A stretch of 64,000 nucleotides of DNA from Styela clava. Taxonomy: Eukaryota. Of the stretch, positions 3,048 through 50,326 are shown piece by piece (position 1 is the stretch's first letter; every line of letters starts with the position of its first letter). A model generated the notes under the pieces. That model ran no database searches. It saw only the letters and a program-made list of their open reading frames with translations, and was not told where the DNA came from. The stretch spans positions 10,230,001-10,294,000 of the forward strand of contig NC_135255.1 in the NCBI RefSeq assembly GCF_964204865.1. Reading direction: 5' to 3'. The position numbers and the translations under genes were made by a program.

Positions 3048-4518
3048 GTAAATTGCATACATAAGCAACACACTCCTTAATAAAATGTCCTGTTTCTTTT
3101 TGTCCTCGTGGGATAAGCTGAAGATTAAGTAAAATCATAATCATATTACCACCGCGCTTTGTCTGGCCCAGCATGGACTGTGACAGATTATTGCTCAACC
3201 TCAATAACATAAAACGGTCTGATTAATCTGAATACGACTCCCGTCTCTTGGGCGTTTACTCTACATTGGTCCTATTTTTGCGTGAAAATGGATTCCTCGC
3301 GACCTATCAAACGGGTTCTGCAATGGTTATTTATTCGAAGTTTTTATGTATGCTCAAATATGTGCTACCTCCTACTCAACGCGATAGTGAAATATCAGAA
3401 TATTCTTAATAAGAACACTGTGACTGTGGAGGTTTCTTATGAGTCAAACTTCCTATAACAACACAACCGTTGTGGGCGTTGTTGAAGGCATTCACTTGAT
3501 TGACTCAATAACACATTACGTTTACAAACACTTTTAAATACACCGAGACATCACAGGCACGTAAAAATTTAAAATACTCGATGGAGAATATTAATGAGAC
3601 AAAATTCCGTAAGCCCGTGCCACGACATGTGGTTGAGTTGTTTTATTAGCTATCCTTCTTCGTTGTAAATGTCTGAAATAAAAACCCGAATCTAAATCCC
3701 TAACCCTAGATGGTTGGTTGGTTCACGTAAAGTCATAATCTTATTCCATTTTCTGGGGTTGCACGGAATTCACAATCAGTTACGGACGTTTTTCAACGAC
3801 ATTATTTTATTTTATTGAGCATTATTTTACTGTGATTGCCCTTGCCGACATTATGACGTAAAACTCGACAAATTTAGAAATTTCTTTACTCATTGTATCT
3901 GTCGATTGATGTTATATTTTTGTTTTCGAAATGTGTAGTATCCATTCAACTGAAGATAAGTCTCTGACGTTGTTGACGTAATCTGCTTTTGACTCAATGA
4001 ATGATAGTGTGACTGACACAATGACTTGATAGGAATTTGCGACCTCTCGTCAATTGAGGTTGAAATGTTGATGTCCGTTTCACCAATTTTTTTTAGGTTT
4101 TTATTTTTTTCAATTACACAAAGTTTCTTGCAAAACCAAAAATGAGAATGAATATTCTATTACCTGGCTACTCCTACAGCTGATGTAGACTTGTAACCAA
4201 CAAGTATATAAAATGCCACATTATATAAAAAGAACCACCCAATATCGATATTTTATTCTATCTCTATCGCCACGACAGAATAAAATAATTCCTTCCCTTC
4301 ATAAACATCGTTTTACGCAACACAAACATAATATTCTTCTTATATTACCGAAAAAACGCTAAACATCACATCCGGTTTCTCAGAATTCTGTAGCATCTGA
4401 TTTTGACATTTGCTACTATCTCACTGTCATTGCGACTAAATTATCACAAGTATCCTCTAACTGTGTTTATTACATTTTAGCTCATTTACAAATATTATGT
4501 CAAAAACATTACAACAAA

Positions 4519-7500
4519 TTAGGTTCCAGGTGCAAACCCAGAGGAGCCGCCGCGACTACTAGGAGGTCCGCTGGCCCAACGTGCTGAACTTCCTCTTGAA
4601 GTCGGTGCAGCGCCTCCGCTAGAAGATCCTGGAGATGCGGGAGCACTTGCAAAATCCCCATATTCAAAATCCGATCCTTCATCTTCTTCCCCTCCACAAT
4701 CAATCCCTGCGTAGGTTTGTAAAAATGTGTGAATCCAAAATTCATTTTATTCACATTGGAAAAATGTGTCCAATTTTTAACAACCGGCGAGTGTACTCTG
4801 ACAAACTATGACTAGATTCCTTTTAACTGAGTTATGTAGACAGAACAAGAAAATGATATTCGTTTGATTTTGAAATACAAAGAAATCTTAATTTACCTAA
4901 TTCTTTTGCAGTTTCTCTCACTCTGCTGATTGATGTTCTCTCTGTCATATCTGTAAGAGCTGAATCAAAGCATATCCCACCTGCGTTGAAAATACATTTG
5001 ACAGATTGGTTTAATAAAATCTTCTTTAGAATATGTCCAAGAAATAGTATGACACAATGGCACAAGCTTCAAATCAGTGCAGGGCTAGGCTATAGGAATC
5101 GAGCCGGTGGTATCACTCCTTACATTCTTTATACTTAAGTCGCCGCATCCGGGACTTTGTTGGAGTAAAAATATAAAGCATGTTACGAAGAAGTTTTTTT
5201 GAATGATATATATATATATAGCAATTTGTATATGTACTTTAAACTCGTGTTTAGATTAAACTGTAAGAAATGTCGTGTTTATTATGGACACTTGGCTGTT
5301 TATTCCGACCAATAATCTGGCATCTGTGAGTTCTCCCGCAAGTCGCTCTTTTCTAAGTGCTCTGATATTTTGTTATTTGTAAGTTCTATTTTTGTTTTAT
5401 TTATTCAGCTATTATATGAGGTGTTGGTGATATATATGAATAGATGAAATTGTGTGTAACTGCCGGAATAAACTGATCCTCTGATGTTCATTACTATAAT
5501 AAAGTCAATGCAACAAAGGTTGGCTGGTCTATTTGGATCGGGCTTTTTAAGTGTTTTTGTTGTTACTTGCACATTGGATCACACAATATCACTACATATT
5601 TCTAGTTGGGTGATACCACCAGTTATGACCTACATAAACTACTTATTTATTAGTTCTGAAGTTAAAGTTTGCATAACAATGAAAAAACAATATTCGCTTA
5701 CCTGTGTCTCTGAGTTCAGCACCAAGATTCCAAAGTTCCTTCAATTTATCTGGGTCTATTTCAGCAGCTATACTGTCCTTGTCGCTGTCTGAAATGAATA
5801 GTTCAAGACAGTTCAAAAATTCAATGGAAATGTAACTTTGAAATTCATTATCTTCAAAATATTTAGCCCTTTTTAGACAAATCCATTTTTCTAAATTAAT
5901 AATAATTTATCAGAATTAAAATAAACTATGGTACTAACCGTGGAATGAACTTGGAACATAGGCATCCACTAAAATATCCAAAAATAGTCTGTTGACAGTT
6001 TCGGGAATCAATTTCGATTTCACTGAAAAAAAAATTAAAACTATTGATCACAAATCTATTATTTCTACCGCAAAATTTGGTAAATAAATCATTTTTAATC
6101 ATAAAAGAAAGTGTTTTCTGTATTGACACACAATTTTGTGCTTTCTTGTGTGTATCCTGACATGTAAGTACTTTTGGCAATTGGTTCACGAAATATAAAT
6201 ATATACTTACATGTTAAGTTCTGGGATCCGCATACTTTTGTAATGATTTCATAAGCTGCATTGTTTTGATCAAGATAGTATTCTTGTTCGACAACAGGAT
6301 AAGGAACGTCTAGAAAAAGATTTTTACCAACCAAATCAAAAAATGATTAACAAGAGAACAATCCTCAAATATATGGACACGACAACCAAATCGAAATATT
6401 TTCCCCACAATGTCCCCCAATACAACAATATCCTGGACAAAGCTGAAACTGTGAAAAGCTTTACCAGGTCTTGTGACAATGATGATTCATGCGTGGGGTG
6501 CCAACATGATTTAAAATTCTGAATGATTCGACTCATAGTGTCCAATAATTCAATACAAAAAATATAAACTAAGACACATTGTCAGAAGTAAGAATCAGAA
6601 TACCAAATTAATTTCATTTTCGTATCTTTTTTGTACACATACAATATTTGTACACGTGCAATATTGCTTGAAAATTTAATAACATATCGCAAAATCTTTT
6701 CGAACAATTTTTACTGAATTCGTATCTAACACGTTAACATACTTAAAACAATATCCCAGAAGATCGGGTCCACAACAAATTTGAAGACGTCATAAACTGT
6801 GAAAATAAAAAAAATAAAAAATATAAATCATGCAGTTGAAACGCAATACAATATTTTTGATATTTTTTAAAGTATTTTAAATTTCCAAATCGTTGACAAT
6901 TTTTTACCAATATTTTTTTAACCATACCTTTTTTTCTGTTTCTTCTGTCAGATTGCCAATTAAATCAAATGAATTAACTTATCATTGGTAGGTATGCTGT
7001 ATGCATGCCAAAAATTTTATCATTTTCATGGCAGTTTGCAAACAGTATTAAATGAAAAAGGAACAGTCCTAAATGTAGTAAATATATACATATATATGTA
7101 TTGGTCATAATATGGGTTGATATATCATTAAGTTCTTACGTGGCCAAAACTTCTTCGATACACTCATCATCGCCGTTGCCAGTTCCGTCATTGCCATATA
7201 GTCGTTGCTGAGTTTTTCAACAAACGCGTTGTTGCTACATATCGTAAATTTACAATTATTGAATGATTCGATAGCTTTTTCTTCTTCCTCTGCGGACAAA
7301 AAATCGTTGTAACCCCAATCTCGGATTTTGTACTTTACGAAGCTTTCTATTATCGAGCACTGAAAGAAGATATTCAAAAATGCACTTATTCTTCAAGCCA
7401 GTGTACATAGAAAGATTAAAATAAAGTATATCATATATAACTGTGACGACATTCAAATATGCACGTTTTCCTACTTAAACAAAAAACACTGGGTAAATTC

Positions 7501-10414: not shown

Positions 10415-13400
10415 TCATCTAGCATATATAGCAAGACAAGTTGGCTTTATCTTCAGACTTTTTGAAATCACGGATACTCGGGCTTGATTCAAATCCACCA
10501 TTGATACATTATGCACTGTCCCTTTACCGGTAGTGCTGTTAAAGTATAAACACTGCAAGGTTTTGGAAATTTGGTAAAGTGAATACACCAACCAAGAGTA
10601 AACCTGTTTGCGAGCAATGAAATGGCCGTTGCTTGAAATTGAATGAGAATCTGGCTTTCTTATATAAGATATTTCTAAATATATATAGGTTGACTACTTA
10701 TAAACAAGTTTGTGGGTAAATAAGTTCCCAAGTATTTTGGGTCTCACTTAATTTCGTAACACATATATCCATGTAGCTGTTAATATAAAATTCTTAAAAC
10801 CTATAACCTAATTATTAAATCATACCTGTCTTCTGAAGCAAGAACAACAATGCATCCATCCACCACACATGCGCAACGTATATTACGTGGAAATTTAATA
10901 TTTGTAACCATTGTCCATTGATTTGAAAAGGGATCATAATATTCTGCATCAGTTCTTAAGTTCTTCCCACCACCTAACATATCCATGAATTTTCCACCTA
11001 GAAATAAACAACAAACCCCACCTGCAATGAATCATTTCAAACAAAATCCGTCGAAAAAGACATTTAATGGACACGAAATGTACATCGTTTTGCTAAATTT
11101 TTGTTGTGGTGACATTTGTTGGGAAAGAATTGCTATTCTCCGAAACTAATACGCCAAATATCTATCAGTACTCAAAGCAAGTTGAAACTGCTAGAAAGAA
11201 ATTTTATTTATTTTTTTTCATATTATCTCCGAGTCCTATAAAACGTTACCCGAAATTTTGCTATTTCTACGAATATTGCGTCACCACGTGGTAGTACAGT
11301 GACGTCAGGCAAGGCTGACATCTTTGTGACAACGTAGGCGCTGGTTACTCAGCTGCAGTGTTACCGGTACCTATATGTGAATAATGGTGGTTATGGAACT
11401 CGATTTACAATCATGTTATGAAGCTTTTAAATAGTCAGATAATGGACTTCTTAATGGGAGTTATTCGCATAGGCTACCGGTACTGCGGTTCGATAAGTTC
11501 CTGACTCTCTTATATACATTATTTACCTCCCATCACGTATATTTTTCTGTTGTGAACAACCGATGAAGATTCGTATCTGACATGATGCAGAGAAGCCACA
11601 GTTGCCCACTTTCCAAATGTAGGATCAAGCTTTTCTACGGAGTTCAAATCTTGACGCCCGTTACTTCCGCCGATGCAATAAAGACTTCCTAAACAAATAA
11701 GATGCAATCTATTAACATCTTAGCACTGAAACAATTAAATATCAAACGTATTCAAGATTTTAAAAGCAAAACGAACTATCGTCATATGCTATATCTCAAC
11801 TTACCGTTTACAGCTGCAACTGAATGACCTCGTCTCGGTGTTTTCAAGCTTGAAAGATATTCCCATGAATTATCTGAAGGTCCATATTTAACCACTCCTG
11901 ACTGGTTGGAGTTTCGTCGTGTGGCACTGACATCACCGATGATAAATATGTGACCTCAACAGAAATAGGGAAGTATTAAGATAATAGACTTTAGTTGTTG
12001 TTTTTTCATTTCACTTTATATGAGGTGAGATGGCAAAGAGATAATCTGCACCTGCATTTTGGGTTTAGTATAATACCACAAGTATTCCCAATGTGCGTGG
12101 CATAAATATTTTTGTGTATGTCATTCCAAACCTCCATATGGCTAGATCATCCAAAAATTACGTCACTGTGACGTAATTTTTGGATGCTGTAGTCAGATGT
12201 CGTGAGGGTTAGGAGTGACATATGCAAAAATTGTAACATATGAGATACTAGTAGGACTTCAGATTTATATGCAATTCAAGCTTTTTTTTTTCATTAGTAA
12301 GGAATGAAAACGTACATTTGGGCAAAAATTTCACCGATTCACATATCATTTGAAGTGCTGTACACCTACCTGTCTCTACCACAAGTTTTAGCAAACAGGC
12401 ATCGTTCACGATTCTACCTGTAACCTGAGTCCAACTTGCTGATTTTGTTGCGTATTCAATTTTATACAATGATTGATTAGATCTTGCAAGTACGTAGATG
12501 TATTTGTCCAACACCACTGCAGAAAAGGTGTCCAATTCTTTGGGTAGAGACTTGAAATTAATGATAAAACTATAGTAGAAAGTACATCAATTTCTGTAAT
12601 ATTATAATTAGGTAATATGTCAAATCAAGTATTGTAAGCTTTTGTCAGGTACATCAGTATTACATGTATCAGTAATACAAAATGTAGTGTTACGCAGATT
12701 ACAAATTTTTTTTTCCGAAAACGACGTTTGAAATAAACATTCCTGGTACCTGCATCTGCATCCATTGATTGGTGGATGGTTTGTATGCCTTGATTGCTCC
12801 AACGCTTTCATCAAAAATAATCAGAGCTAAAATTAAAAGAAAATAATGACCTATTCAGCTCAAATCAACCAAGGCAACATATCACGACTTATGAGAACTA
12901 AATTATATAAACCAAAATCAAATGACAACGCGATGACAAGTGTTTATATATTCCCATTGTCACGAAATTTCACTTTTGTATTTCGTTCAAAATGCCAAGA
13001 CACTACCCAATGCACAGAGACTTTAAACGAAAAATATCACTCTTTAAAGAATTATTACCATTTGATGGAGAAGTTGTTTGTGGTGTCTCATGTCTCGGTT
13101 TACTTGCTTTTGATGGCTGACTTCCCGAGTTTGACTTCAACGTTGATGACAAAGGTGGCGATGGGGTATGAGATATTTGTCCGAATAAGACATTAACCAG
13201 CATTTCCAAGCAGACTTTCGATTCTTTAACCAATGCCTACAAACGAGTCGCAATATTTTAAAATTTGTAAATTACGTTAATTAATTGCCCTTAAGAAGAC
13301 TTGGATCAGCAATCATTATTCATATTGGTAATTTCATTAACATATTTTCGGGATAATGCAGTGCACAAATGAACCTTTGTCATCTCATTCGTGCCACTGT

Positions 13401-15152
13401 TTGTTTCAATATTAATAAAATAAATAGTGCTCCATCAGCTGGAAATTACAAAAACATCCCAATAACTGGAAAACTTCTTACTTCTTTTTGAACGGTCTCT
13501 TTCAAATATTCAGACGATAATTTGTGAAGTTTGATAAATGCAAGTAACTGTGGAAAACTTGCTTCGCGATTCTTGATATCTGCTTTCACCCAATATACTA
13601 TTGCTTCATAAATCACAGCTGGGGATAATGTTTGCTAAAACATGAAAATTATATAAAGAATAGTCGTTAATAAACCAAATATATATATTCCAATGTCACA
13701 TATATGTTTATGAAGCGATCACTCAAACAAGGCTTACGACAAGCCAACGGTAATTTTTGCGGAGTAATACCCTGGCAGATAGCTACCACCATGCGATTCA
13801 CAATAGCATGTTTGAATTTTTATACTATGTTGTGATATACATGAATTCAATAGAGAATGATATTGTTTTTCGCCTTCCTATAAGTATAGCGCATGTATTT
13901 ATTTTTTTACATTTTCGAATGAGGTATATTTGACAAATTACTTGGACTTGGTGTGCTGATATAAGCGACGTCAAATAAACTTCATCAATTTTCTTAAAAT
14001 CTTCCGTTAATGCAATATCTTTGAAATGAGTCACAGCATAGTCATCAGCAACGTCTTCCAGCTTTTGATTCTTATATGTATTCGCCAATTTTTTGGTACT
14101 AAGACAAGTTTTACCATCAATGCGACTTTGTAAGAACGAAAATATCCATTTACTAAGCTCTGAAACAAAATTTTATTGAGAAATATTCACACTTAAAACA
14201 CAATGAACGAAGAATAACAGTAAATTTTCTTTGTGATTAATTTTGAATATTCAGGAATTCACAATATTTAACTATTAAACTAAACAAGCAAGGAAGTAAA
14301 TGAAACTTTACAAACCATCCAGTTCTAGAAAACAAGCAGCTTTTAAAACTGGCTCCACAGAAGACATAGAAACTGAAATATCTCCACTATATATAAATTC
14401 AATGCATTGTTTCACTGCTTTCGGGTCAAAATCTTTCAGTTCAACTTTTGTCGCAGAAGGATTGTTATTCTAAAGTATTTGAATAAAATTTTATATTAAA
14501 ATAATGATTGCACACAATTAAATAGTGAAATTCCGAAATTTAATCCAAATGCTAATGAAATATTGGGTAACTATTTTATTATCAAACCTCCGAACTAATA
14601 TAATATCCCAAACATAAGGAAAATGAGATTGCCTTTGGTATTGTTAATACGCATTTATAACGCTTAAATCTGGAGTATTTTGAATAAGACTAATTTGTAA
14701 GATACAATCAAGAACATATAAAGATTTTGCAACATACTTCCTTCTTTTAAAAGTGCACTCTCCTAAATTTAGACAAATGTAGTGAAGAAATACTCCTAAA
14801 GAGCTTATAGCGTATCCATTTCCGTACATTTCGTTTTAGCTGTAATCTTATTTGAATAATTTTTCATGTTTTACCTTAGGTAAAAATAAACCTTGGAAAT
14901 ATTTTGATCTTGATGCAAGAACAAGTCTATGTGCTTGTATTTCCTGACCTCCAACGTGAATCTTAGCGTCACATAGTATCACTGCACTTTTAAAACTAAA
15001 TTTGAAAAATATTTTGATAAGAACATCATATAACTAACCAATTATGTTATTCATGATGCATTATTCGTACCATGTGATTGAAAAACATTTTTCTGAGCAG
15101 AACATAACGAGATTGTAACCTTTTTTTCTATTTTATTAGTATTTGTTACCAT
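10415..15152 (-). CDS. Kelch-like protein (BTB-BACK-Kelch), about 13 exons
   Basis: BTB: LCDAKIHVGGQEIQAHRLVLASRSKYF...VELKDFDPKAVKQCIEFIYSG. BACK: IYEAIVYWVKADIKNR..FPQLL. Kelch repeats: GSLYCIGGSNGRQDLNSVEKLDPTFGKW, KIYVMGG..AEYYDPFSNQW. The start exon is ambiguous (ATG at 15152 or 15105). Confidence 0.9.
12148..12186. repeat. Perfect 19-bp-arm palindrome in a kelch-gene intron
   Basis: CATCCAAAAATTACGTCAC-T-GTGACGTAATTTTTGGATG. Confidence 0.9.
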
Positions 15153-25640: not shown

Positions 25641-27335
25641 GATGGAACTGGATTTCCTGGGCGGAATTGCAGAATATCGAATCACGACTTCTCGTCTGGC
25701 GAAGATCCATCCTTATAGGAAATTCTGCAAGAAGAATAAAGACTGCTACAAGGGATCACGTGTCACCGTAAGCATAAGAATGTAACATAATCCACCCACG
25801 TCAGACTTTCTCAAACCTTACGTTTTACAGTTACTTAAATACATTGTTTCTGTCTCGCACAACCTTTCATATTTCTGAGTAAAATGCACCAACATGTCAA
25901 CACTAAATAATGGTAAACCTTGAATGTATTCTTTTTTCTATTTTCAGGATCCCAGATTCAAATTGAATCAGATCCACATTGAGGTGGATTACATCAAAAG
26001 AAGTTGACTGGTGCAGTCAGCAGTCAGTATGCGCCCGGTACGGGGTACCATCTTGGCGTTGAAGACCTGAATTTTATTAGAGAACCTAAGTGTGCTTAAG
26101 CAAGGAGCCATGGCAAGAAGAGCGATACGATCAATATAACATGCGATATGATAGCTAAATGAAGTTGAGATGGTTCGACTTCAATTATGCCGCTGTTTGG
26201 GCGGTAAATGTCAAGATCGAATGAGTTTGTGTTTGTAACTTGTATAAAATTGTCATTGGTGAAATTCGCAAGTAGACAAATTATATACTACTTTCGAATA
26301 AACATTCAGTTTAAAATAGAGGAATGTGCCAATTTTATGTATATATGTCAAATATTATAACCTTCTCACTGTAATAAATACATTCAATCTTATGCAATGC
26401 AAGAACACTTTTCCTTATCTCTTAATGATGGGTATCGATTTGCGTATGTATTCTTTATTAATTCGTAAGATCTGTGAATTTGTATCAAATTATGTAATGA
26501 TATAAATATGACATATACTCATCTAGATATATATGATTACATCTTGTGAGACGTAAATACCTATTCATTATAATGTATTTGGTAACATTATGATAATGTT
26601 TAGTTTTACCATATGTTTTCGTTGAAATGATTATTGTCATAAATGCCATAAATAAGATCGGCAAAAAGTAATATTTGTGTCTCGAAAGTTTGGTGTGACA
26701 ACTTCTGCGATTGGTTATTGAACTAATGAGCAATTTGGCTGTTATGAAGTTGGCCATTACACTAGTGGACAAGTCGCCAGGCACCGCTCATCTATCTTTT
26801 ACTGGTGAATAAGGTTGTTTGCCAGAATATAGCGTTTGGTATCTCCCGTAATGTAAGATAATCGGGACAGTCGTGATCAGGCAACACTTCCAAAAACCAA
26901 TTAGCATATTTCATTCTTACGGTCCATGTTACAGTCTCTAAAACGTTTCGCTGTGTTCAATCATTAGAATCGATATATATATAGCATTTTAATATTTCTG
27001 AAAAACTTTGGTTACAATGACTTGATGGTTAAAGTTACCATCACAGGGTAAAAGTCTCAGGTTCAAATAACATGACCATACCCTTACCTAGGATGTGATA
27101 AATTGGGTAGTCAACGTGTACCCTGGAAAGATCCCGGTCCCTTCAAACGATAGTAGCTTCTAGCAGTGACATTTATTCATAGCCTTGTTTTGATTGAAAG
27201 AAAGCCCCGTTTTGGCATAAGGAATAACTAATCAAAACATGAATATAAAAATTGAAGCATATTCTCGCGTTCTTGTTTTTCATTTGTTAAAGACACTAGG
27301 TATTTTAGACAGTGTGGCTATAATAAGTAATAAGA

Positions 27336-28435
27336 ATGCGTTTTGTACTCTCCACGATATTCTGCACCTTAATTGCCCTTAGCTGTGCTTACGCCTTTTT
27401 GTTGATAAATTTGCCAAAGTTCGAATTAGAGGAAGGAGTAAATGACGAAGACGGCACGATGTCTTTTTCAAGGCGGCCTCCATTTATACGCGGAGCATTT
27501 ACTCGGATGAATGGAAGGTGGGTGAATGTGCACAATATTGTAACAATATCTACTTCTTCATTTCCGTAGATTTATTATAACCCTGAGTATATGTCGTATA
27601 TATCACCTTTCGTTAAATAAAATCTGAAATGCTGTTGGATAAAGCTTCTAAAGTAGCAACAAAACATTTTGTAATATTCTTGTGTTATATCACTTCGAGT
27701 TTTTTTCCTGTTAATAATCAAAATTGAATTCTTTTTTTAGAAGATGTGTGGCCATGCGAGCCGATATCCATTTACTTATAAATATTACGTTTTTATTCAA
27801 AATAACTTCGAAACATAGATTAATAATCATTTAAAACGTGTAGGATAGATTCCTTGCAATCGACTAGGTAAAAAAAAAATCGTGTTGTTGACTAGGTCTT
27901 ATTTTAGGTGGAGGGCTTATTTAAAAAAAAATTAAATTCAAGCTAGGTCTTATTTTCAGGGTAGGTCTTATTTTCGGGGAAACACGGTAGAAGTGAATAA
28001 CCATTATTTCAATACAAATATATCCTGTGGTTGAAAGTGGAAACTAAAATAGGCTACTAAAATATTTCTCTAACTTTGTTTATAAAATGGTCTGTATTCA
28101 ATAAAGATATTATTTTATTCGGACTTCTTTTTCTCATATTTTTAAGGCGAACTCACGTCGTACCGTCGGATGGCTGGAAACGCAAAAAGAGAGAAATACA
28201 ACACCAGGAAGGCGAGTTTGCTATTTATTTTATTACACATTGCACCTGTCATATCAAATATAAAATCTTGTTGAATAGTTTTGTCGAAATACTTGAAGGA
28301 TTTTATGTTTTGCTTTCGATTGTATGTTTGTCTGTTATATAGAGCACTTAATTGCAAACATTAAAATAACGTTTTTTATTACTATTTTGTTTTACATATG
28401 CAGCCATAGACGAAGACATAGCACTTTTTGAGTGA
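27336..28435 (+). CDS. Small secreted prepropeptide (neuropeptide/hormone or host-defence peptide precursor), about 92 aa, 3 exons (27336-27517, 28147-28211, 28404-28435)
   Basis: Signal peptide MRFVLSTIFCTLIALSCAYA, acidic spacer, then RR-PPFIRGAFTRMNG-RR-THVVPSDGW-KRKKR-EIQHQEAIDEDIALFE*. TATAAAA near 27244 and AATAAA at 28482. Confidence 0.65.
27890..27990. mobile_element. Terminal fragment of a Tc2/pogo-like DNA transposon
   Basis: Repeated TAGGTCTTATTTT ending in CGGGGAAACACGG-TA. Confidence 0.55.
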
Positions 28436-29806
28436 AAGAAGAAGAAAGAAGAAATCTATTTTAAAATACTTTTTGTACAATAATAAATCTTTGCAATACG
28501 AAAAAAATCTCTTAAACGTTTCACATTTATGCGTTTTCTCTACGCAAGCGCTACTGACGAGGATGGTGTGGGAACCAAATCTAACTCAAGATGTAACAGA
28601 TTTTAATCGCGACACCCCAAACAAGGATAATTACTTACAAGTCAAGTTTATTTTTTCCAACCAGAAAAAAAGTCAGTTTCACACAAAATATGAGGAAGAT
28701 AGAAAATCACACATTTCATCTGGGGAAGGGAAGCCGAGAGGAACCAATGCTGGTTATCGAGCAGCGAGATCTAAATACAAAAAATACGCTTCGTTGGTTC
28801 GAAACACGTGCATTCAAGCTTGCTTAAAAGTCGGTTATATGAAACTGATACTATTGTGTTTGTTGTTTAACCGCGAGCGAGCCTAACTTCAAAAAATCGT
28901 CTGATTTTTGTGCAGATAGTGTGATATCCTATTTTTAATCTTGGTTTATTTTAGTTAACATTTCACAACTTACCAAGTTTATAAAAAACCAGAAATATAA
29001 AATTTCATTTTATTATTATTATTACTTGTCCCCACAAATTGTTTCTACGAAGATTCCCCACACAACAGAGGTTAAACTTGAGACACAGTGACGTAATGGG
29101 TAAAAAAAAATACTGAAAGAAGAGTCATATAAAAAAAATAAAAAAATTTATTTAGACCAAAAATCAGCAAAGCAGTCAAAAAATGTTTGATAAAAACAAA
29201 AATCACAAATTCTTGAAATTTCGGAATCATATTAAAATTAATTCCTGAGTATGGATTAGAAAATATGTCTAAATCACTGAAATTGGGGATCGGATTTCCC
29301 GGTATCCCATCCCCATTGCTTACTTAGGAATCGAATTCATATTACCGACACCAAAACAAATTGTATTTTTTCGGCCGTAGTTGTTATAAGAATATGAGCA
29401 TCCATATTTCCACAAATCGGAGGTTTCAATACGAAAGTCAACTGTTGACATTTGGAAAACAAAATTATTCGAAAATATTGCAAAAATTGGTGTTTTTATG
29501 CTGGTAATTCAATAATTATTTGCACGCAGTATTCAAAAAGTATTCTAATAAAAATTTACAGGAGTTCAAAACCAATAATCTCCGTTTTTAACTTTTTTTT
29601 AAAACAGTCTCAAAATTTTTTTTTATCAAATCCTTCTAAATATAAATTTACGGTTATCCACTTCTTTGTCTCTTTCACTCGATGTCATAATTGAGTGTTT
29701 GTTTAATATATCCGACGCAGTCAAGCAAAAAATTCTCCCGAGACACGTCGCCGATAACAGCATTTTTTTGGTCGTAGCTGGTGTTTTCCGCCGCTAGTAT
29801 TGTAAT

Positions 29807-30355
29807 ATGTGCCTGAAAGACGCAAAAATAGCAGCCTATTTGACGTTGCTGACGGTATTTTACTGTACATCGTATGCCCAAGATGCATGTTCTGATCTTT
29901 TACCAGGACAATACCGCTGTGCTGAACCTCAAATAGATGAGCATACTCAGGCTGTTGCCAACTGCACACCAGCTGGCAAGTCGAAGATTGACTGCTATCC
30001 TGTCAATGGTATAACATGTGATGGGAAATCGTTTAATGGAAGCCAAATTGGTTTCGAAAAACTAATAAACTGTACATATACTAATGGATATTCTTATACA
30101 ACAGCACTTGGACTTTCAATTTTTCTTGGTTGGTTAGGGATAGATAGATTTTATTTAGGTTATCCAGCACTGGGATTATTGAAGTTTTGCACCTGTGGCA
30201 TTTTTGGCTTAGGTGCATTTTTTGATTTTTTATTAATTGCATTGCAAGTTGTTCTTCCTGCCGATGGTTCAAATTATGTCATTGATCTCTATGGACCCCG
30301 ATTGCGGGAAATTTCTATAAATGCTGAAACTTATTTTAAACCACAACTTGAATGA
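29807..30355 (+). CDS. TM2D1: TM2 domain-containing protein 1 (beta-amyloid-binding protein-like), intronless
   Basis: Signal peptide, CSDLLPGQYRC...PQIDEHTQ, NGYSYTTALGLSIFLGWLGIDRFYLGYPALGLLKFCT..DFLLIALQVVLPADGSNY. Confidence 0.93.
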   Translation: MCLKDAKIAAYLTLLTVFYCTSYAQDACSDLLPGQYRCAEPQIDEHTQAVANCTPAGKSKIDCYPVNGITCDGKSFNGSQIGFEKLINCTYTNGYSYTTALGLSIFLGWLGIDRFYLGYPALGLLKFCTCGIFGLGAFFDFLLIALQVVLPADGSNYVIDLYGPRLREISINAETYFKPQLE

Positions 30356-34400: not shown

Positions 34401-37400
34401 TGATTTTGCAAACTGGTATTTCTGTTATGAACTTTATTGTGAATCTTGCTGTAGTAGTTTTCTAAACAGGTAAATTCCTCTTTTTTTGATTACCATTATA
34501 TCGCTATGACTCAATTTAATTATGTAGGTTCAAATCCGATGGGTAATAAATGTGGGAGACATTTGCTGATTGCTGTACCCTTCAATCTCCACCATTGTAG
34601 GGTTGTTCTATTACCACTGGTCGGTACTGCCGTCCTCTCACATATGGACCTGTAACTGGACAAGGGGGCTGGCTGAATGATTAAGCCATCTTTTTAACTT
34701 TTTCCACTTTACAAGATGAATATGACAATCCTATCTTAATTTATTACCTATATTCAAAATCTATTGTTTTCCATTTTTTCTAGGTGAATACATTCAATGA
34801 TATTCTGCAGCTTGTTATCGTTGAACTTGTTTACAAAGTTTGTCATGCAAATCCAGGAGAAAGAGCAAGATTTATTCGATGCATATATAATCTATTGCAG
34901 TCATCTAGCCCAGCTGTTCGTTATGAAGCTGCAGGAACTTTGGTCACTTTGTCCAGTGCCCCAACCGCTGTCCGGTGAGTAAAACATAAACTGGGCATCT
35001 AAAATGAAAAATAAAATATCAACCCATCAATGTTTGTGAACTTTATTAAATTGTGATTAAATAAATACTGTTAAACTATTAAATACTAATATATGAGAAA
35101 ATGTGATGGTTTAGTGGTTGAATGATGAACTTAACGATGTTGATATCATTAGTTGAAAAATTGTACAGATACTTGATGGTTTCGATGATTAATTTAAACT
35201 TTTATGATGATATTTGAGCCAGTGTTTCTGAAAATTGCCCAATGCAGTAGGCCAAGGATGTTTTTTTGTAGACTACAGAAAAAGACCATCACAAAGTACC
35301 ATTTCTCATGACTAAATTGAACTTATGATTTGGTCAAAGCTTTGATCGCGTCTAGGCGTCAGGATCCCCAAGTGTCTAGAGTTTTAGAAAGGGGGCAATG
35401 GGTTAAGAAATCAACAGCACTATATTACAAGGACGACTTCCATTGATTTTTCTTTAGTTGCTGATCCCCCATTTTTTAAACTATATTTCAGTGCTGCCGC
35501 CCAATGCTACGTTGAGCTAATTGTGAAAGAAGCTGACAACAATGTCAAACTTATTGTGCTGGATAGATTGATTGAATTGAGAGATCACCCCAGTCATGAA
35601 AAAGTTCTTCAGGTATGTCCTAACCTATATTCTATTTCGAGTATTTTCCTGATTGTGTGACTATGGACATAAAATCTTTATGAACGACAATGTCTAAATC
35701 TAACATATTATTTGTTCTAAACCTGCATTCCCCAGAAAGACACTGACAAATAGGATTTTTCATTTGTCCTTGGCCTTTTTCGTGACTTGTATGCTTCATG
35801 TAAAGCCTTCTCACTAATATATCATTTATTAATCTTCATTTGTAAACATTTGTTGGCATTGGCGTGTGTTCACAATGTGTTAAGAATTGCTTCTTTATAC
35901 TTATTTTTAAACAAATTTTCAAGTCTCTTAATTTGTTAAGAAAAATAATTGTTTTATTTTCAGGAACTTGTGATGGACATTCTTCGTGCTCTTTCCTCAC
36001 CTGATCTTGAGGTCCGTGAAAAAACTTTGAATCTGGCTCTGGATCTTGTGTCATCCAGAAATGTGGAAGATCTCGTTAAATTCTTGGAAAAAGAGGTTGG
36101 TATTTTGTTAGTATATTAGAAAAGGAAATGTTCATGTCATTCAAGTACAATTATGTTGGAAACAGAATTTCTTCATTTGGGCACAACTTCATGATGGATT
36201 TTAACTTTATATTTTCCATTATTCTTCATATGATAGGATATTATGGAGTTATCTTTTCAGTATATTTAACAATATCCATTGTGAATTGGGTAACTTGTGA
36301 CCAAATTCTGAACGAGCTGTCTGCGCGAACACCACACTGCTAAATCCAACATTTATTGTGGTTTCAAGAACATCATACGCCAAATAAAATTCCGTCTCAT
36401 CTTTTTTCTATCAGATTTCAAAATCGACCAGTGCTCAAGGACATGATGATACTGATAAATACAGACAGTTATTAGTTCGAGCCATGCATCAATGTACTAT
36501 CAAGTTTCCAGATACTTCTTCTGTTGTTATTCCAGTGGTAAGTTATATCTTGGTTACATACATAATGGGATGATATAACTTCGTTGATATTATCATTATT
36601 CCAAATAACAAAAGAGAAATGCTCAAACATATGGACGCCAAAGTCGTATGACTACAGCAATGTCATCAAAATCCCTGCCAGATGATAAAAAGAATTGTAC
36701 CCTATCAAATGTGAAGTAGTGCTCATGTAAATCTGTTTTCCTGAATTATTGAAGACATCAAAATTAGGGATAAAATATCTGGCCTAGTAGAAGTCTTCAG
36801 TCTTCAAGGACTGAAAATTTGAATTCTGTTAGTTGTGAAGAAACTAAATTTTTTCACTATCCCAACACAGCAACAATAATTCATCAAAGTGATTCATAGG
36901 TTCATATTGTGTCCAATTAGTTGTCGAAAAGTTTTAATAGAACTTTGACACCTATATATGCACCCTCTGTAAATTTGAATGCAATAATCCCGGTGAAAAA
37001 ATATTTTGTTCAGCTGATGGAGTTTCTCAGTGACAGCAATGAACTTGCGGCTGGTGATGTTCTTGTATTTGTTAGAGAAGCTGTTCAAAGATACGATCAA
37101 CATAAATCTCTCATACTCGATAAGCTACTCGAAGTATTCTCTTCTATCAGGAATTTGAAGTGAGACTGAATCATTGAGTATTGCTAATATGCAGTCTTAT
37201 TTTTCATCATTGACTAGTTAAAATTTGCAATCAAGATCAACACATGTTATATTATTTAATACCGGTATAAGTTGATTCGTTCAGTTTTGATTGATGTAAA
37301 TCAAAACATCAGTATTCATCAAGTCTAAAGGCAAGCGAAAAAATTATGACTCAATCGTGAAAATCTGGAGGATTCCAAAATACAATATGATAAACATTCT

Positions 37401-40400
37401 GCCACAATTTGATCGTTGAGAAATATTCAAGTATTCATGAAAATTTCGGTGGAATTTTAGGTACTGCCGTAGTATGTGTACCCAGTTAAGGTTATAGCTT
37501 ATGCCATAATTTTATTCAGATTTCCCCCTATTTTAGTTATATTAAGAGTTACTTGATGTAAAATAGGCGAACACAATTAGCTGCCTCCATATTGGTAGAC
37601 ATGCATCTGGAGCGATGAATTTTATGACAGCTCCGAGAAATAAATTTTATAACGAGATCTTTGCTAGCGTCTTCTATAATTTACATTTAGGTTGACGATG
37701 CTTAGTCAGCTTAATCTATTTTAGAATTTTGGGTCATAGATTTAGCGTTCAAATTTTAACTCTCTACCCCAAGAATTCAGAATTGCATCTCTGTCAAGGA
37801 GTTCGAAAGTGCAACTTTATCTCTGACCTCATATCCTAGCAATAAAAGCATGTCATGCTTGGGACTCCAGATTTCACAGGCCTGTGTGATTCTGAAAAAT
37901 TTATTTAATATTTTTTCATTGTGACCATTTTTTGTACCCTGTTCATGCTTGTTAGCTGATTGACAAAAATCAAACTCATGCTTTTTTGTTTATTTTGTGC
38001 AGAATAATGCGTGGTGTGTTGTGGATCTTGGGTGAATATTGCGATGGAATCGAAAGGATTCTGCATTTCATGGATGACGTTAGAAAATGCGTCGGTGAAC
38101 TTCCAATCGTTGAAAATGAATTGAAATTGGCTGCTGGAGAAATGCCTGAAGAAAAACCAGAGGAAAAATCAACTAATGATAAGGTATGTTGTTGAAATTA
38201 TGTTTATACGAGTGTACCTAATCGAAGTGAAATCTCTCTCTAGGGAAGAGATTTTGTTTTCTAGTAGGAAATACTGAACTATGTCTCTGATTTCATTGTA
38301 ATTTCACTAATATAGTTCAGTTATTTAGTAATATTGTAATACATGTGGGCACATTATAAACTATTTAAAATATGCAAAAGCCAAAGTACAAGTTGTGCGT
38401 AATACTACCTAAGGATTCTTTGAATATTGAACAAATAACAAAAAGTCTCATCAACTTTTTTTTCGTTTTAGAAAAAGGAAAAACAAAAGAAGCAGAAAGT
38501 TACAGAGATGGGAACATATGCTACTCAGTCGGCACTCAGTGTCGCAGTCAGACCAAAATCGAAGGATGAGCAACGACCACCGTTGCTCAATTTTTTCATG
38601 AATGGGGATTTTTCTCTCTCGTCCTCGCTTGCTACTGCCCTCACTAAACTTGCTTTGAGATTTCGAGAAGTTTGCTCTGATCCTAGGAAACAAAATGTAA
38701 GTGAAGATTATCAATTTTTAGTGTGCCAAATTTGTATATACAGTATCTTAGAACTAAAAATGGTTTAAAGATATATACCGGTAGTCTGAACACAACTCAA
38801 CCCAGTGAATTTCAAATTTTCATGATCTGTGGCCCCAGCAATTGAAATGAAAAGAATTGAATAAATTACAGTCAAAATTAAGCTTATTACAGCTAATTGG
38901 CTTCTAATTAATATTGTCATCCCAAATAGTAACTAGCGAAGGAGTCGCTCTTGTGAGGCTGAGAAATTTGACCTGACCAAAGTCTAATCATTTTTTGAAG
39001 GCAGTGTTCCCTCCTGTTTTTGTACAATTGAGCAGCCTGGACTTCATTTCTTTTCACTCTTGTGCTTGACTTTTTTCCGAATAATAAGATATTGACAAAC
39101 TATTATACTGTATTTTTTCTTTCAATAAAGAGAACGAAACTTGCAATCATATATATTTCATGTATTTATTCAATTCCACTCTAACTAATTTTTTGAAAAT
39201 AATTTTACTTACATAAACCCACTTTTTTGCAGTCATTCAATGCTCAATGCATGTTGATATTGTCGAGTGTGTTACATCTCGGTAAATCTGGACTTCCTAC
39301 TAAATCTATCACTGACGATGATGAATCAAGAATTACACTTTGTTTGAAGGTAAGTGTTACAACATTATGATGTCATATTCATTTTGTTCGGATTGGGTAT
39401 CGGGCTTAGGCTTCGATACTTTTATAATTTTATTCAAGATCATTTCATTGCTTATTCTGTTTATTTTTTTGTTGACAGTGAATTTATATCGTTAATTTCA
39501 TTTCTTTCAAGGTGTTGGCGGATTGTTTGCCACTCATGACTGAAATATTTAACGAACGTTGTCGTGAATCACTTTCCTCTCTACTTGCTGTACGTTCTGC
39601 AGAAGAAGCTCAAAAACAGAAAGCCGCTGCTAAGAATAGAAGTGCTCTTACTTCTGTGCAGGTTAGAATTGAATGTTTGACTTAATTGCTTTGTGAAGAT
39701 GTTGCTGCTGGAAGTCTTGTTATGTGTCATTGCGTATGCGAATATACTTTAATATCATTAATATCCTGTGCAAGTTCAATAAAATTAACATTTTTTATTT
39801 CTTTTGCGTTTGCTCAGTGTTTTAGCTTAACTGGGAATAAAATCTTCATTTTAAAAAGGCAAACTGAAGTTATGCAAAATATCAGAAATCCACATTTTGA
39901 TGTCCCTCTCTTGTTACTACTCATCTATGTTATATGTTTGAAAATATGAATGGAAAATTTAGCTATTAATATACTTTTGTTAAGCCCGATGATCCGATCA
40001 AGTTCCTTCAACTTCTTGAAAAGACTGAATCAGGAACATTAGAAGATCAATTTGAATTAAGTTTAAGCGCAGCTGTTGGTTCTGCAGCTCAGAAGAAAGA
40101 AGCCAGGGATCCTCTTGCTTCAAAATTAAACAAGGTAATAATATATGATAACAAAAGAAAATGTTAAATAATGCACTCCTATCTTGAATATATAGGGTGA
40201 TAAAGTCATGTTTCAATTACAATATTGTTATGAAGTCAGTTCTCCATATATCCTAACCAGTTTTATTTTTACTTCATTTAGTACACTTTTAAACGCATCA
40301 CAATATTTTGTTTCTTTGTGGGCAAGTTGATAAGCAGAATATTTTACATTTTATTTAAAGATATTCCTATAATTTTACTTCCAATGAAGTCCATGATGGT

Positions 40401-43400
40401 TGTGATATTTTGTGATTTCATATGATGACAACAGAGGCTCCCTCTTCCGACGCACTGAGCGCATGGGGAAAAGCCTTCGAACCTGATGTCTGATGCTAAT
40501 CACAATGAAATAAGAACAAAATAATTCACTATTCAAAAAGTTTCAAAATGAAATCATATGTTCGAATATGGAGTATATTAAATTTATTTTAAAATGGGAT
40601 TATGTTCAACAAAGAATTTTTTATAAATCATTGTAAATTGATAAAAATTGAATTTGGTTATCGGAACGCTGAAGATCAACAATGTTTCTTTTAATATTCT
40701 CTTTTTACTGGGTAGAAAGTAAAATTAAGTGGGTATATTTTATGTCTTAGAAAATATGAAATTTAATGCACGAAAGTATGCTAAATTATTTCTGAAATCA
40801 AGATCTAACCTTATCAAATATCACCAATGTCTAATATTAATATATTCGATAATTGATTCATTTGGACATCCCTACTAGTGAGGACAATGTTTTATGTGCT
40901 TTTTCTATACTTATTAACTTCCATCCAGGTCACCCAGTTGACAGGCTTTTCAGATCCAGTATATGCAGAAGCATACGTTCATATTAATCAATACGATATT
41001 GTATTGGATGTGCTGGTTGTTAACCAAACTACAGATACTTTGCAAAACTGCACATTGGAGCTTGCTACTCTAGGTGAGGATTATGTTATTAACAAAATCC
41101 ATTGCTTCTCTCACAGATCCAAGCAATATTTTAACTTTTTAAGAATTACTGTTGGATTTGGTGGCAAATGACTGAAAAAAAATCCAAATCCATACAGTTG
41201 CTCGAATTGCAAATGTTTGCTCCAGTCGGTAATCTTGTGATACTATAAGATTTTGAAGTCACAACTACTGCTCTGATGTTTGTGATATCCATAATATTTG
41301 CCAGTTATTCCCATCAAGCTATTGTCAAAGCTTAATTGGGCATCTAACTTGTTATGGTATATTGTATTGTTCTACATTTTCAGGCGATTTAAAACTTGTT
41401 GAAAAACCAAGTCCTCTCACACTTGCTCCTCATGATTTTGCCAACATTAAAGCAAGTGTAAAGGTCAGTACTGTCTAGTATATTTTTATATTATTTATTT
41501 CTTCTGGGTGGTTTGGACTCTTCATATAGTCTGCAAGCCAGTTTAAATCGTCAAGTTTGTTTGGTTTTGATGTAAGACTGAGACTAATCACGATTTTAAT
41601 ATTGCATCGCTAAAGATTTGTTCAGACAAGTTAGTTTAATTAGCAATGTTCCCAGTTGCCTATGAGTGGCCTATGAATAACATTGATATAATGTAATCGA
41701 GTTATCCAAGAACAATAATCATTTGAAACTGTGAATAAAATTGGTTGAGCTTTAGTGTACTCTGATTAAGAATTGTACTGTCAACATGGGAAAGGTATTT
41801 TTAAGTTGTTACATATCTATTTTTGCGCTGAACATTTGTTTATTTGTTGGGTATGGTGAATTAAATCTATTTTCTAGCGGAATGTGTCTTTATTTTATCA
41901 ATTAGCATTGATTCATATCTGTTCGAAGACTTAGAAGAAGTGATCTTACTTTTGTTTGCTTTTTCCCAGGTTGCTTCCACAGAGAATGGAATCATTTTTG
42001 GCAACATCGTTTATGATGTATCGGGAGCTGGTAGTGACAGAAATTGTGTTGTGTTGAATGATATTCATATCGATATCATGGATTACATTACACCTGCTTC
42101 ATGCTCAGATTCTGAATTTAGGTTAGGTTTTGATTTAGAATGCTAAATACCCAGTTTTACTTTTGATGTGTTTCCGTCGGGTATTTTGTTTGCCATGTTT
42201 AAGTAAAAATTCAACAAATGGAAGCAAAAGAATAAATGCAATGCAGTCAAAGAATTAAACAAATCGCTGCCAATGCAGTTATTGTGAGTGGTATTCGTGA
42301 AGACCTTTGCTTGTGGCTGTAAAAGAACCACACCAAATTTCACATAAATCTCTATTTCATTTAAAAATGAAGTATTTTCACATTAGTTTTTTTTTTGATT
42401 TATTGAAAGAGATCTTTTTTTATTTCATATCAATTTTTAATTTTGTTGTTCTGAACCAGTTTCTTTTTTTCACATTACCTATTATAACTCAACGTCGAGT
42501 GTTCTATTTTCCCTAATTAATATTAAATATTAAAGCGATTAATTCAGCATATATCACCATTTTGGTTTTATTTACCCAAAATTTAGAAATTATTTTCAAA
42601 ACTTTCTTTTCTCCAACAGGCAAATGTGGGCTGAATTTGAATGGGAAAACAAAGTTACAGTCAATACAAATCTATCGAGTCTAAATGATTTCCTCAGCCA
42701 TATAATCACATCTACCAATATGAAATGTCTGACACCAGAAAAGGTATTATCTTGATTTTACATTGTATTTTAACTGGTTCTTCATTTGATTAGCATGTTT
42801 ATCTTATCATAAACAGTGGAAAAAAGATAGGTGTCTGGGACTGGATTATTCCACTCGCGAAATTCAAACCACAAATTTTAGGCCATATTTTCTGAAAAAT
42901 TTTCACTAAGTATGAAAGAATCAATTAGAAAAAATTTTAATGGGGGTTTGGGTTAAATTTTGTGAAGTTCGAATTGAAAACATTCTAGTTTTTAAACCCC
43001 AAAAAAATTAGAGTAGTTCAAAGAAATGAATATGACCGGTCACTTTAAATTTTCTGAAATTGTACTATTTAGCTGATTAAAAGTGATAATAAAAAGATTT
43101 GGCAACCCAATGTTCACCCCTCTTTATCCAATAGCTCATCTGTCTTTATTTTTAAGTCAGCAACTTTACATTTGTTCAAGTCCTTATTGTCCTATGTCAC
43201 CCGATTTTATCAATAGTTTTCTTTGTTTCTAGGGTTGATCTTAGACTCATTTGTAATTATTTAGGTTCTTGGAGGTGATTGTGGATTCCTAGCAGCTAAT
43301 TTATTTGCAAAATCGATATTCGGTGAATGTGCTTTGGCTAATGTTAGTATAGAGAAACCTTCAGATAAAGGACCAGATCATCCAGTGCAAGGACATATCA

Positions 43401-47139: not shown

Positions 47140-47272
47140 TATATATATTATCTGCATAGCGATACGGTATTCTAATCCGTTTCTTTTTTCAAAGAGGTTA
47201 GTCGTGTCATGATTTCCAAATTAATTCTTATACTTGGCTAGACTTTGCATTGTAAATAATCGTGCAGGAAAA

Positions 47273-50200
47273 ATGAAAGTTATTTGTGCAGGAATGTCAA
47301 AATGTGGCACCAAGTCTGTTAACGCAGCACTTCGAGAACTTGGATACGTTGTCTACGATTTTATGGAAAATTATGACTTCTATAATGCCGAATACCAACG
47401 ATTCGTGAGTGACGATTGGACAGTAGACGATTTCCGTAAAATGTACAATGACGTCGACGTTGTTATTGATGGACCGCTCTATTATTTCTGGGAGGAAGCT
47501 TTAGAGTCTTTTCCCGAAGCCAAAGTAAGCACGTTTGCATGACCCCGCTAACAGTCTGCAATGGGCAATCTTTCACGATGCTGTCCATTGTTAGTCGTAT
47601 ATATATGAATTATGTTTATGTATAAAGTTTATGTACTCATGTAAATTCCCAGCAAAGACCAAATTTTCTCAATCTTTAGTGACTTAGAATACAATACAAT
47701 TTACATATGTATCCCGGGGAGAGGAAAGCCGATAAGACGGCTCAACCATATGGCGAACCACGGCCTCTCGTCCGATCACCATTCCATGTCGGGTATGGGT
47801 TTAGATAGTTATTTGTTTTTGGAAGCATGGACTTGATGGTGGAGGAAGCCGTAACCGACCAGCAGTTACGTGAACCACCCTACTGCGACGAGGAGTCCAG
47901 CAATCCTCTCGCGCATACCCATCTCGCATGGGATTCGAACCTGCGAACCCAATCAGAGTAATCAGTGGTGCGGTGGCGAGCGTATTTTTAACGCTTAGCA
48001 CGATGAGACACACCGCCGCGCCACTTTAATAATAGTCGAAAAAAAATAGAAAACGAAAATTTCATACAAATTGCCGAATTGTATTTATGCTATACCGGTC
48101 ATTATAATTTGAAAAATTAAACTTAGCGGGTCTCAGCCGAGTTGAAAATCAGTCAAAAGTTATCACCCAAAAGCTTGGTATTATGAATCAAATATCTGAT
48201 TAAGCACATCGAATCTGTAATATCTCTTAACAGGTCATTCTTATGATGAGAGATACGGATGATATTTGGTATGAAAGTATTTCAAGGCAAATTCATCGGA
48301 ATCTGAAGCACCATTTCTATTACAATTATCTCTCATCAACATGGCGAAGATTTTGGAGATTTGCTTTTAACGCAGGTACAACAATACATTAATTCTTCTC
48401 AGCTTTAAATATTTTTATTCGTCACACTCTTGGGTGTTGATCTAACCTTTGACCTCTAAACAATTCTTTCTTCACTTCACAGTTTCCGTAACAATGTCCA
48501 ATCAGCAGTGTGTTAACCGTGACGCACCAATTGAACTTTTTGCAGTAGTTCAGTCACACTTTCACACATTTTTAAGCCTGGTTGTAAGCGTTGGCTCGTT
48601 TTTGCAGTTTTGTGTACAGTCTGTTAGTTTTTAGATGAATTACCGAACTTTAAGTATATATATATAAACCAAATACCTCAATGATCATTTTCTTTTTCGA
48701 ATAATTTTCGTTTCGCTGCAGTGAACAAAAATTAATGACAAAAAGATGATATATAAAATAATATATCTGTATTTTTAAATGGCAGGCAGATTTACGAAAT
48801 ATTTAAATATTTTGAATCAAAATAGGGGTTAGGTGTAGGGATGTGAGTTTTGAATAATTTATTTTCGAATCGAATTTTCTTTGTTATAGCATTGCATTAT
48901 AACTTTCTTTAAAATTGGAATAACTACAGAATAAATTGTAATTAAATAATATTTAAAGGATCAATAATGTTACATGTTACGGGAACATCGTAGACATATG
49001 TTTTAATAAAGAATAGTGCAACGAAGGTATTATAATGATATTATATTGATACTTTGAAGAAGACATATTTATGAAAAGTCCTAATATTTCAAGTATTCGA
49101 ACAAAATTGAGCGAAACAATTGGTTCATATAACACCAGGGTTTTTTATGACTTGGAAAAGCCGCAAAGAGGGGCTTTAGTCCATGTTGAAACAATGCAGC
49201 TAAACGTCGCGCGATCGCCTCGTGTTATCTGAATTAATATTGAGTTTTTAAATAGAATCAAGCTATTTTTTTTTTCTGAAACGAAACAATCACCAAGGTC
49301 GATCGTTGATCGATCAATTCTGGTGCACTTCTCAAAATCACTTTTTTGTCTCAAGCAATCAAGCAGCGACGACTAGTAAATTTCAAAAAACAAGTTGAAA
49401 AAGGATAATTTTAGGATAACCAGAAAAGAATCCTCAGACAAGAAACTGAAGTCATCCATATAACCACAATTGAAAATCTGACTGAAAAACAGTTAACTTA
49501 CACTTGCAAACAAGCATCAATATATTGTTGGGGGATTTTGTTTAATTTTCTGGTAATAATTGAGTAAGAAAAATGCCATAATAACTTTTTTGCAATGGAC
49601 ATTTTCATGTTAGATTGATCACAAATATTTATATCCCAATCAGGTTTGCTGCCTTTTGGCGTTCACTATACTGGGTATAATACGATAGAAGAATCAATCG
49701 ATGCAGAATTGGCGATGAAGCAATGTTATAGAAGACATATTGCTCATGTTGTACACGTACGATGATTTATTTTATATAACAGTAGTTACTTATTATTGGT
49801 TACCACTTTGAGCGTATGCAAATAATCCGAGGTACATATAATTTGCATAAATGGTTAAAATGAATCCTGAATCAATTGCTACATTTACCAAAATTCTGGT
49901 TTTCATAGAAGTTCATTAGTTTTGTTCATATCGTCAAGTGTAGTATTTGGGCTTTGCGTAAATAAAACTGAAAAGTATATCTTTAAGAACCATGTGAGAT
50001 ATACGTCTACCTCGTTCCGTATTTCTCGTCAATGTTTAATATTAGGCGACTTTCACATTCATAATTTACAACAGAGCTGTCCTAAAGATCGTCTGCTTAT
50101 ATTCAACTGCAAAGAAGGTTGGAAACCATTATGCGATTTCCTGGAGAAACCAATACCACGTTTCCAGTTTCCCGTAATCAACGTTAAGAGTGAGCTCACA

Positions 50201-50326
50201 GAAGGTATTTGGAAGAGTGCTGTGTTGAAACGAAGTACAAAAGAAGTATATGTTTCTGTCGGCATCACAGTTATTACCCTGTGCAGCGCTGCCTATGTTT
50301 TAGGTCGTTTTAATAAATTCATATGA
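47273..50326 (+). CDS. P-loop sulfotransferase-like protein (Sulfotransfer_4 type) with C-terminal TM anchor; exons 47273-47524, 48234-48375, 49644-49756, 50075-50326
   Basis: MKVICAGMSKCGTKS..AL..LGY; D..PLYYFWEE....FPEAKVILMMRD...WYES; Y..HIAHV..SCPKDRLLIFNCKEGWKPLCDFL..PIP..FP..N. Confidence 0.88.
47689..48021 (-). mobile_element. tRNA-derived SINE, near full length; partial copies at about 58950-59090 (-) and 34525-34700 (+)
   Basis: Pol III A-box-like head and B box GGTTCGAATCC on the minus strand, shared body GAGAGGATTGCTGGACTCCTCG..GGTTACGGCTTCCTCCAC, simple-repeat tail (TTGTA)n. Confidence 0.85.

Follow-up and report, generated by a model that had tools for sequence, protein, structure and literature searches.

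A transcript-supported candidate precursor of an amidated signalling peptide in Styela clava

Genomic context and transcript structure

The DNA analysed here is a stretch of 64,000 nucleotides from Styela clava (contig NC_135255.1, positions 10,230,001 to 10,294,000 of the forward strand), hereafter referred to as the window, and all coordinates given below are those of the window. The gene under study is located on the forward strand between a BTB-BACK gene on the reverse strand (approximately 12.2-15.0 kb; exons at 12248-15033, likely kelch) and a TM2D1 gene at 29.8 kb on the forward strand (29807-30355), which is intronless and encodes a TM2-domain (TM2D1-like) protein that clusters with a named Styela clava protein and is identical to it at 179 of 182 residues. 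Exons of coatomer beta (35388-42146, forward strand), of a Sulfotransfer_4 protein (47225-50326, forward strand) and of an adenosine deaminase (55531-55839, reverse strand) lie further to the right, one exon having been scanned in each case. Two reverse-strand frames some 5 kb from each other (963-1250 and 5926-6213) have the same 95-residue translation and represent a local duplication or a repeat, and a shared stretch is present at 2932-3222 and 54558-54839. High-copy repeats occupy 27704-28038, in the long intron of the gene, and 28575-28775, in its 3' untranslated region, where the summed depth of DNA contigs rises to about 650,000, compared with about 500 in neighbouring sequence; short direct repeats are present in the same intron at 27892-27973.

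The initial annotation had proposed three exons, 27336-27517, 28147-28211 and 28404-28435, which together give a frame of 279 nucleotides encoding 92 residues and a stop codon, and both this frame and its splice sites are backed by public (Logan) contigs from four runs. The junction 27517/28147 is joined in the contigs of all four; in each run compared, the letters that no longer follow the genome from 27518 onwards are those of the exon at 28148, and splicing creates the G-RR motif. The junction 28211/28404 is joined directly by run X2 and by length in run X1, where record 4 contains both outer pieces separated by 66 letters, the length of the middle piece. Record 8 of X2 consists of three contiguous pieces (27420-27514, 28144-28209 and 28402-28522), whose offsets of 3 and 2 nucleotides correspond to repeated AAG and AG, so that the junctions are the predicted GT-AG and GC-AG ones. 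The first intron (27518-28146, GT-AG) is 629 nucleotides long and holds the high-copy repeat at about 27704-28038; the second (28212-28403, GC-AG, phase 1), across which X2 record 8 joins, has 192 nucleotides. The four junction-bearing runs come from a single study and their RNA status is guessed rather than on record, the evidence for an RNA origin being the loss of exactly these two introns. Contigs of X5, a run from a second study, cover no spliced junction. No contig covers 27523-27690, the stretch holding an alternative donor (27522) and acceptor (27569), and since contigs drop rare forms, this lack of cover leaves room for alternative splice forms. The gene is real, and its coding structure is confirmed in Styela clava.

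A probable non-coding first exon at 26766-26804, with a GT donor directly behind it at 26805, is indicated by one contig, X1 record 1, whose 30-letter loose end matches 26766-26804 with one substitution and a 9-nucleotide gap, and which joins 26804 to 27284. The 5' untranslated part of exon 2 would accordingly span 27284-27335, with an implied acceptor at 27281-27283, where the reference reads CAT and not CAG behind a good pyrimidine tract. An allele carrying CAG is presumed, so that the splice site in the 5' untranslated region may be polymorphic. The TATA-like box TATAAAAA at 27244, initially read as a promoter element, lies within the stretch skipped by the X1 contig, and one X4 contig (depth 3.1) runs unspliced through 27200-27295, across the same stretch; since this stretch is either skipped or read through, the box is probably not the promoter. 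The AATAAA signal reported downstream does exist at 28482, but X1 contigs go on to 28767 and 28873. The 3' untranslated region can be followed to the latter limit (28436-28873), and another AATAAA is present at 29137. The signal at 28482 may be used, as an X2 contig stops at 28522, with the reservation that contigs cannot show transcript ends.

Predicted precursor and search for relatives

The motif order read in the initial annotation, that is, a signal-like segment, an acidic spacer, Arg-Arg, a 12-mer, G-RR, a 9-mer, KRKKR and an acidic tail, is present in the contig-supported frame. The predicted signal peptide (residues 1-20, 27336-27395) was delimited by hydropathy, with Kyte-Doolittle 9-mer means of 1.56-2.48 for windows starting at residues 1-19; the hydrophobic stretch extends to residue 26, beyond the predicted cut behind A-Y-A at residue 20. 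It is followed by the acidic spacer (residues 21-45, 27396-27470, net charge -5), an Arg-Arg pair as a predicted convertase site (27471-27476) and the predicted 12-residue peptide PPFIRGAFTRMN (residues 48-59, 27477-27512, net charge +2). Positions 27513-27517 encode Gly60, from which the amide is predicted to derive, and two letters of the Arg61 codon, where the phase-2 intron cuts. Exon 3 (28147-28211) contributes Arg62, the 9-mer (residues 63-71, 28151-28177, net charge -1), the furin-type site KRKKR (28178-28192) and the start of the acidic tail (residues 77-92, net charge -6), the end of which is encoded together with the TGA stop codon at 28404-28435. Residues 46-76 carry a charge of +10 between the acidic flanks (-5 and -6), and the mature region is short, free of cysteine and marked by three basic runs.

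Dibasic sites and a G-dibasic amidation signal are present in the reference frame, where a proline follows the first Arg-Arg. Proline after a dibasic Arg-Arg disfavours cleavage by convertases; the literature search found no paper stating this rule. Among 100,000 shuffles of residues 21-92, a G-dibasic site alone occurred in 12.3%, a dibasic site followed 3-29 residues on by a G-dibasic site in 3.7%, and this arrangement together with three basic runs in 1.9%, all of these tests being post hoc. The cleavage motif is only modestly above chance, and the layout is suggestive and not decisive.

The claim that the precursor has no known relative held in the animal's own genome and in the protein collections, Pfam, PDB, metagenomes and literature searched. 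Protein searches were performed with residues 1-61, which are encoded by one exon. In the 377-Mb genome assembly, whose contig C6 holds the locus, one protein and two DNA queries revealed no second copy; as only the best genome candidates were scored, distant paralogues may be missed. A collection of 5.8 billion proteins contained no relative at lengths of 33-107 residues, and at 108-2000 residues it yielded eight candidates, none at E<=10. Two phmmer matches among 1.84 billion representatives (E 1.4e-4 and 5.9e-4) are to repetitive proteins over 26-30 residues and were rejected as chance. Residues 1-61 found no match in PDB, and none of 594 pattern matches in metagenome contigs was confirmed as a relative. 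Pfam reported no family for residues 1-61, residues 21-61 or the exon-3 frame, HMMER filters being known to drop weak matches; a Pfam match of the peptide-bearing exon to galanin/spexin, GnRH, CCK or calcitonin is absent. A literature search for the exact motifs returned irrelevant papers only, most subscription papers being outside its reach. The absence from the protein collections suggests that the exon is not annotated as a protein there, and the term orphan is used here in the sense that no relative was found in the collections searched. In the ESM Atlas, seven of the ten best rows belong to peptide-hormone families both for residues 1-61 and for residues 21-61, of mixed identity and all scoring below 0.9; these matches are a lead on architecture only.

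Allelic variation and possible functions

The differences listed between contigs and reference include 17 coding substitutions, 12 replacement and 5 silent, of which 15 come from alignment tables, where differences near the ends of pieces are hidden, and two were read off an X4 loose end. For the substitutions listed, pN/pS is 0.68 (P=0.31 against neutrality), and the coding frame is not distinguishable from neutral. In the acidic spacer (27396-27470) six of the seven listed variants replace a residue, while four of the six listed changes in the signal peptide are silent (P=0.035, post hoc). Fifteen of the 17 listed changes fall before 27479 (Fisher P=0.002, post hoc and confounded by blind zones and haplotype blocks), and residues 49-62 and 72-92, blind zones included, have none among the variants listed. 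In the DNA run X9, variation falls after 27478 in intron and untranslated pieces as well, so that a haplotype block explains the low variation equally well. X1 record 4 and X2 record 5 have five differences counted and four listed each; the extra one, which probably sits close to the end of the exon, could affect Asn59 or Gly60.

Residue 48 is Ser in four and Leu in one of the five RNA contigs covering the position, and Pro in X9, as in the reference; X4 carries Pro67Thr and Ser68Leu in the 9-mer. A 4-nucleotide tandem duplication behind 27470 is present in two of the five RNA contigs and two of the four runs (X1, and X4 at depth 11.8 of 32.5) and absent from X2, X3 and X9. Its product is another 92-residue frame without any G-dibasic site, and the X4 frameshift haplotype also has Ser16Arg in the signal core. 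Since a segregating frameshift allele removes the G-RR site, the gene is likely dispensable, a frameshifted version being present in other individuals. The proposed release of the 12-mer amide and the 9-mer as conserved hormones is weakened by the population data, namely the Ser/Leu variation at residue 48, the frameshift, the replacements in the 9-mer and the pN/pS of 0.68.

The reading tentatively preferred, at a little short of an even chance, is that the gene encodes a lineage-specific, weakly constrained amidated signalling peptide released from a likely secreted precursor. The transcript structure, the open frame, the motif order and the allelic variation are observed, and every step after splicing is one that we infer. 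Signal peptidase would cleave behind residue 20, with further cuts made behind R61-R62 by a PC1/PC2-type convertase and behind KRKKR by furin; a carboxypeptidase would trim the basic residues, and PAM would convert Gly60 so as to leave Asn59 amidated. Less confidence attaches to the cut on the N-terminal side, at R46-R47: Ser48 alleles would yield the 12-mer, whereas the proline behind the Arg pair in the reference disfavours the first cut, so that the product of the Pro48 allele may more likely be a 13-mer that begins with Arg47, or else a 39-mer left uncut. Within the granule, the +10 core would be balanced by the acidic flanks (-5 and -6). The released peptide might signal through a G-protein-coupled receptor, either as a neuropeptide or as a haemocyte or gut hormone. 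Ascidians are described as possessing numerous lineage-specific neuropeptides together with cognate receptors (PMC6475428), and S. clava amidates peptides such as clavanins and styelins (PMC10608444). The frequency of amidation motifs, reported in 360 of 771 secreted Chlamydomonas proteins (PMC6313938), counts against an amidated peptide, as do the frameshift allele, the variable residue 48 and the near-neutral pN/pS. Matches to PF01082 (copper type II monooxygenase) were observed in 46 exons of the genome, on contigs C5, C13, C10, C20, C1, C14 and C3; their clustering on C5 and C13 likely reflects a family expansion. The matches do not distinguish PAM from other copper monooxygenases.

Alternatively, the gene may be a haemocyte host-defence precursor of the type of the Ciona linear cationic antimicrobial peptides, an explanation judged unlikely but serious. 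Microbes would be killed by the Arg/Lys-rich core (residues about 43-76), set free entirely or as fragments, the acidic tail serving as a neutralising propiece and the Arg pairs belonging to the active peptide. Abundant replacement polymorphism and null alleles are in keeping with a defence gene, and both are seen here. The charge of +10 on residues 46-76 between acidic flanks would also fit, as would the presence of a short, likely secreted, Cys-free precursor with an acidic C-terminal region, but the whole core has a hydrophobicity (H) of 0.063 and a moment of 0.054, and the 12-mer carries +2 only. The values for residues 43-60 (H 0.316, moment 0.333, charge +4; hydrophobicity scale hand-checked against one published table value) are within the ranges in Table 3 of PMC7387483, although this segment contains two Pro and two Gly. 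By eye, Ciona candidates in Table 1 of the same source hold FSRR-like motifs and acidic tails whose last residues are an aromatic one and Glu, as is the case here; most of the Ciona precursors described there are built as signal, cationic and anionic parts, whereas 25 acidic-spacer residues precede the cationic part of the candidate (PMC7387483). Furthermore, Ciona peptides form families, and no paralogue was found in the S. clava genome.

It is also conceivable, if rather doubtful, that the gene is a young or decaying orphan, transcribed, spliced and perhaps secreted with little or no selected function, its cleavage motifs being by-products of an Arg-rich stretch or relics. The frameshift allele in two of four runs, the pN/pS near 1 (0.68), the Ser16Arg change on the X4 frameshift haplotype, the reference without a canonical acceptor at 27283 and the G-dibasic site arising alone in 12.3% of shuffles would all agree with this. 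Three coding exons with clean splice sites are, however, much for a neutral frame, the predicted signal peptide is well formed with mostly silent variation, and the acidic, basic and acidic parts are laid out in order. Background variation is high as well, and even two S. clava sequences of TM2D1 differ from each other, at 3 of their 182 residues. That no homologue was found would fit an orphan in decay, but homology search routinely misses short peptide genes (PMC8936170).

It is highly improbable that the gene is what remains, in strongly diverged and decaying form, of the neuropeptide Y/F gene, whose loss has been reported for all tunicates. In that case residues 21-59 would be a 39-residue amidated peptide and 63-92 its flanking peptide, the RY-amide being lost and the layout of signal, peptide, G-RR and 30-residue flank kept with two coding introns, in a gene caught being lost with a null allele segregating. 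The C-terminal RY/RF-amide is absent, the peptide ending M-N-G, and a Pro-Pro stands where the helix should be. The 39 residues that separate the predicted signal cut and the amide site and the PF00159 clusters ranking second and third in the ESM Atlas for residues 21-61 (0.86 and 0.84, lead only) are in its favour; against it, the Pfam scans of the locus are blank, and the weak PF00159 matches of the genome, 27 in number and all short of the cut-off, do not include the locus. Ten top-ranking matches examined of these 27 are one identical repeat frame on different contigs, and a C-terminal PF00159 match on C14 comes from a frame of 20 residues that has no signal peptide; all were rejected. A phase-2 intron in a nearby Arg codon, with another intron further on in the C-terminal region, is an arrangement also described for NPY/NPF genes (PMC7314547), but here the intron cuts the Arg after Gly and not the Arg before the last residue, in the RF/RY dipeptide, and an AG|G phase-2 junction yields Arg by default.

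The analysis adds a transcript-supported precursor with a prohormone-like layout, missing from the collections searched. Ascidians are already known for orphan secreted peptides, and the kind is not new. The known S. clava peptides are haemocyte antimicrobials, and no neuropeptide survey of Styela clava was found in the literature search. For peptidomics, the [M+H]+ values calculated from the reference allele are 1405.75 (48-59 amide), 1561.85 (47-59 amide), 4543.3 (21-59 amide), 997.47 (63-71) and 1899.9 (77-92). The predicted peptide would also provide a ligand with which to match receptors in tunicates, the sister group of the vertebrates, and animals that carry the frameshift naturally would serve as loss-of-function material. 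A single testable candidate is thus gained, with a small chance of bearing on the tunicate loss of NPY signalling.

Comparison with known peptide systems

The initial annotation had recognised neither peptide among known tunicate ones, and a comparison with 18 Ciona-specific peptides, the tachykinin motif and CiEMa gave the same outcome; the original Ciona peptidomics paper and the supplementary peptide tables of PMC12441681 and PMC6475428 were outside this comparison and may bear on novelty. The tachykinin ending FXGLM-amide is absent from the precursor. The neuromedin U/pyrokinin motif is FxPRx-amide, of which the candidate has the F at -5 and an N-amide, while Pro-Arg is absent and Pfam is blank.

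Like NPY/NPF precursors, the candidate has a peptide-length stretch beside the (here predicted) signal peptide, a G-dibasic site, a phase-2 intron in an Arg codon and a second intron; it differs in the absence of RY/RF-amide, the position of the intron after Gly, the internal Arg-Arg and Pro-Pro and the lack of a PF00159 match (PMC7314547). The clavanins and styelins of the same species are amidated and released from prepropeptides, as is predicted of the candidate, but they are His/Phe-rich helices of 23 and 31-32 residues, respectively, unlike the candidate (PMC10608444, PMC9966394), and no clavanin or styelin protein was retrieved by the protein-collection, phmmer or PDB searches with residues 1-61. 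The linear cationic antimicrobial precursors Ci-MAM, Ci-PAP, KH.C7.94 and KH.S921 of Ciona resemble the candidate in their 50-100 residues, their signal peptide (a predicted one in the candidate), their Arg/Lys-rich core, their acidic tail and a mature part without Cys; the candidate is set apart from them by its extra acidic spacer, the Pro and Gly of its core, the G-RR site and the failure to find paralogues (PMC7387483).

CiNTLP, CiLF and CiYFV/L are, like the candidate, short, lineage-specific and without vertebrate homologues (PMC8936170 Supplementary Table 1; PMC6475428). Their precursors carry several related peptides with the free C-termini LF, YFV/L or Pro-x-aliphatic-aliphatic (PMC8936170, PMC6475428), whereas the candidate has one predicted amidated peptide and none of these ends; repeated peptides with the C-terminus of the CiLF, CiYFV/L or CiNTLP family are absent, and the precursor ends L-F-E, with no free LF end. 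The 9-mer has only a V-P-S stretch in common with CiNTLP1 (PMC8936170). CiEMa of Ciona robusta was demonstrated by mass spectrometry and is cut at unusual Trp/Asn and Gly/Asp sites, whereas the predicted sites of the candidate are basic and known from sequence, and by eye the two sequences do not resemble each other (PMC10888236). CiEMa, a haemocyte signalling peptide without BLASTP relatives, nevertheless likewise comes from an orphan secreted ascidian precursor and is a short amidated signalling peptide of 14 residues (PMC10888236), the kind of product that the candidate is predicted to yield.
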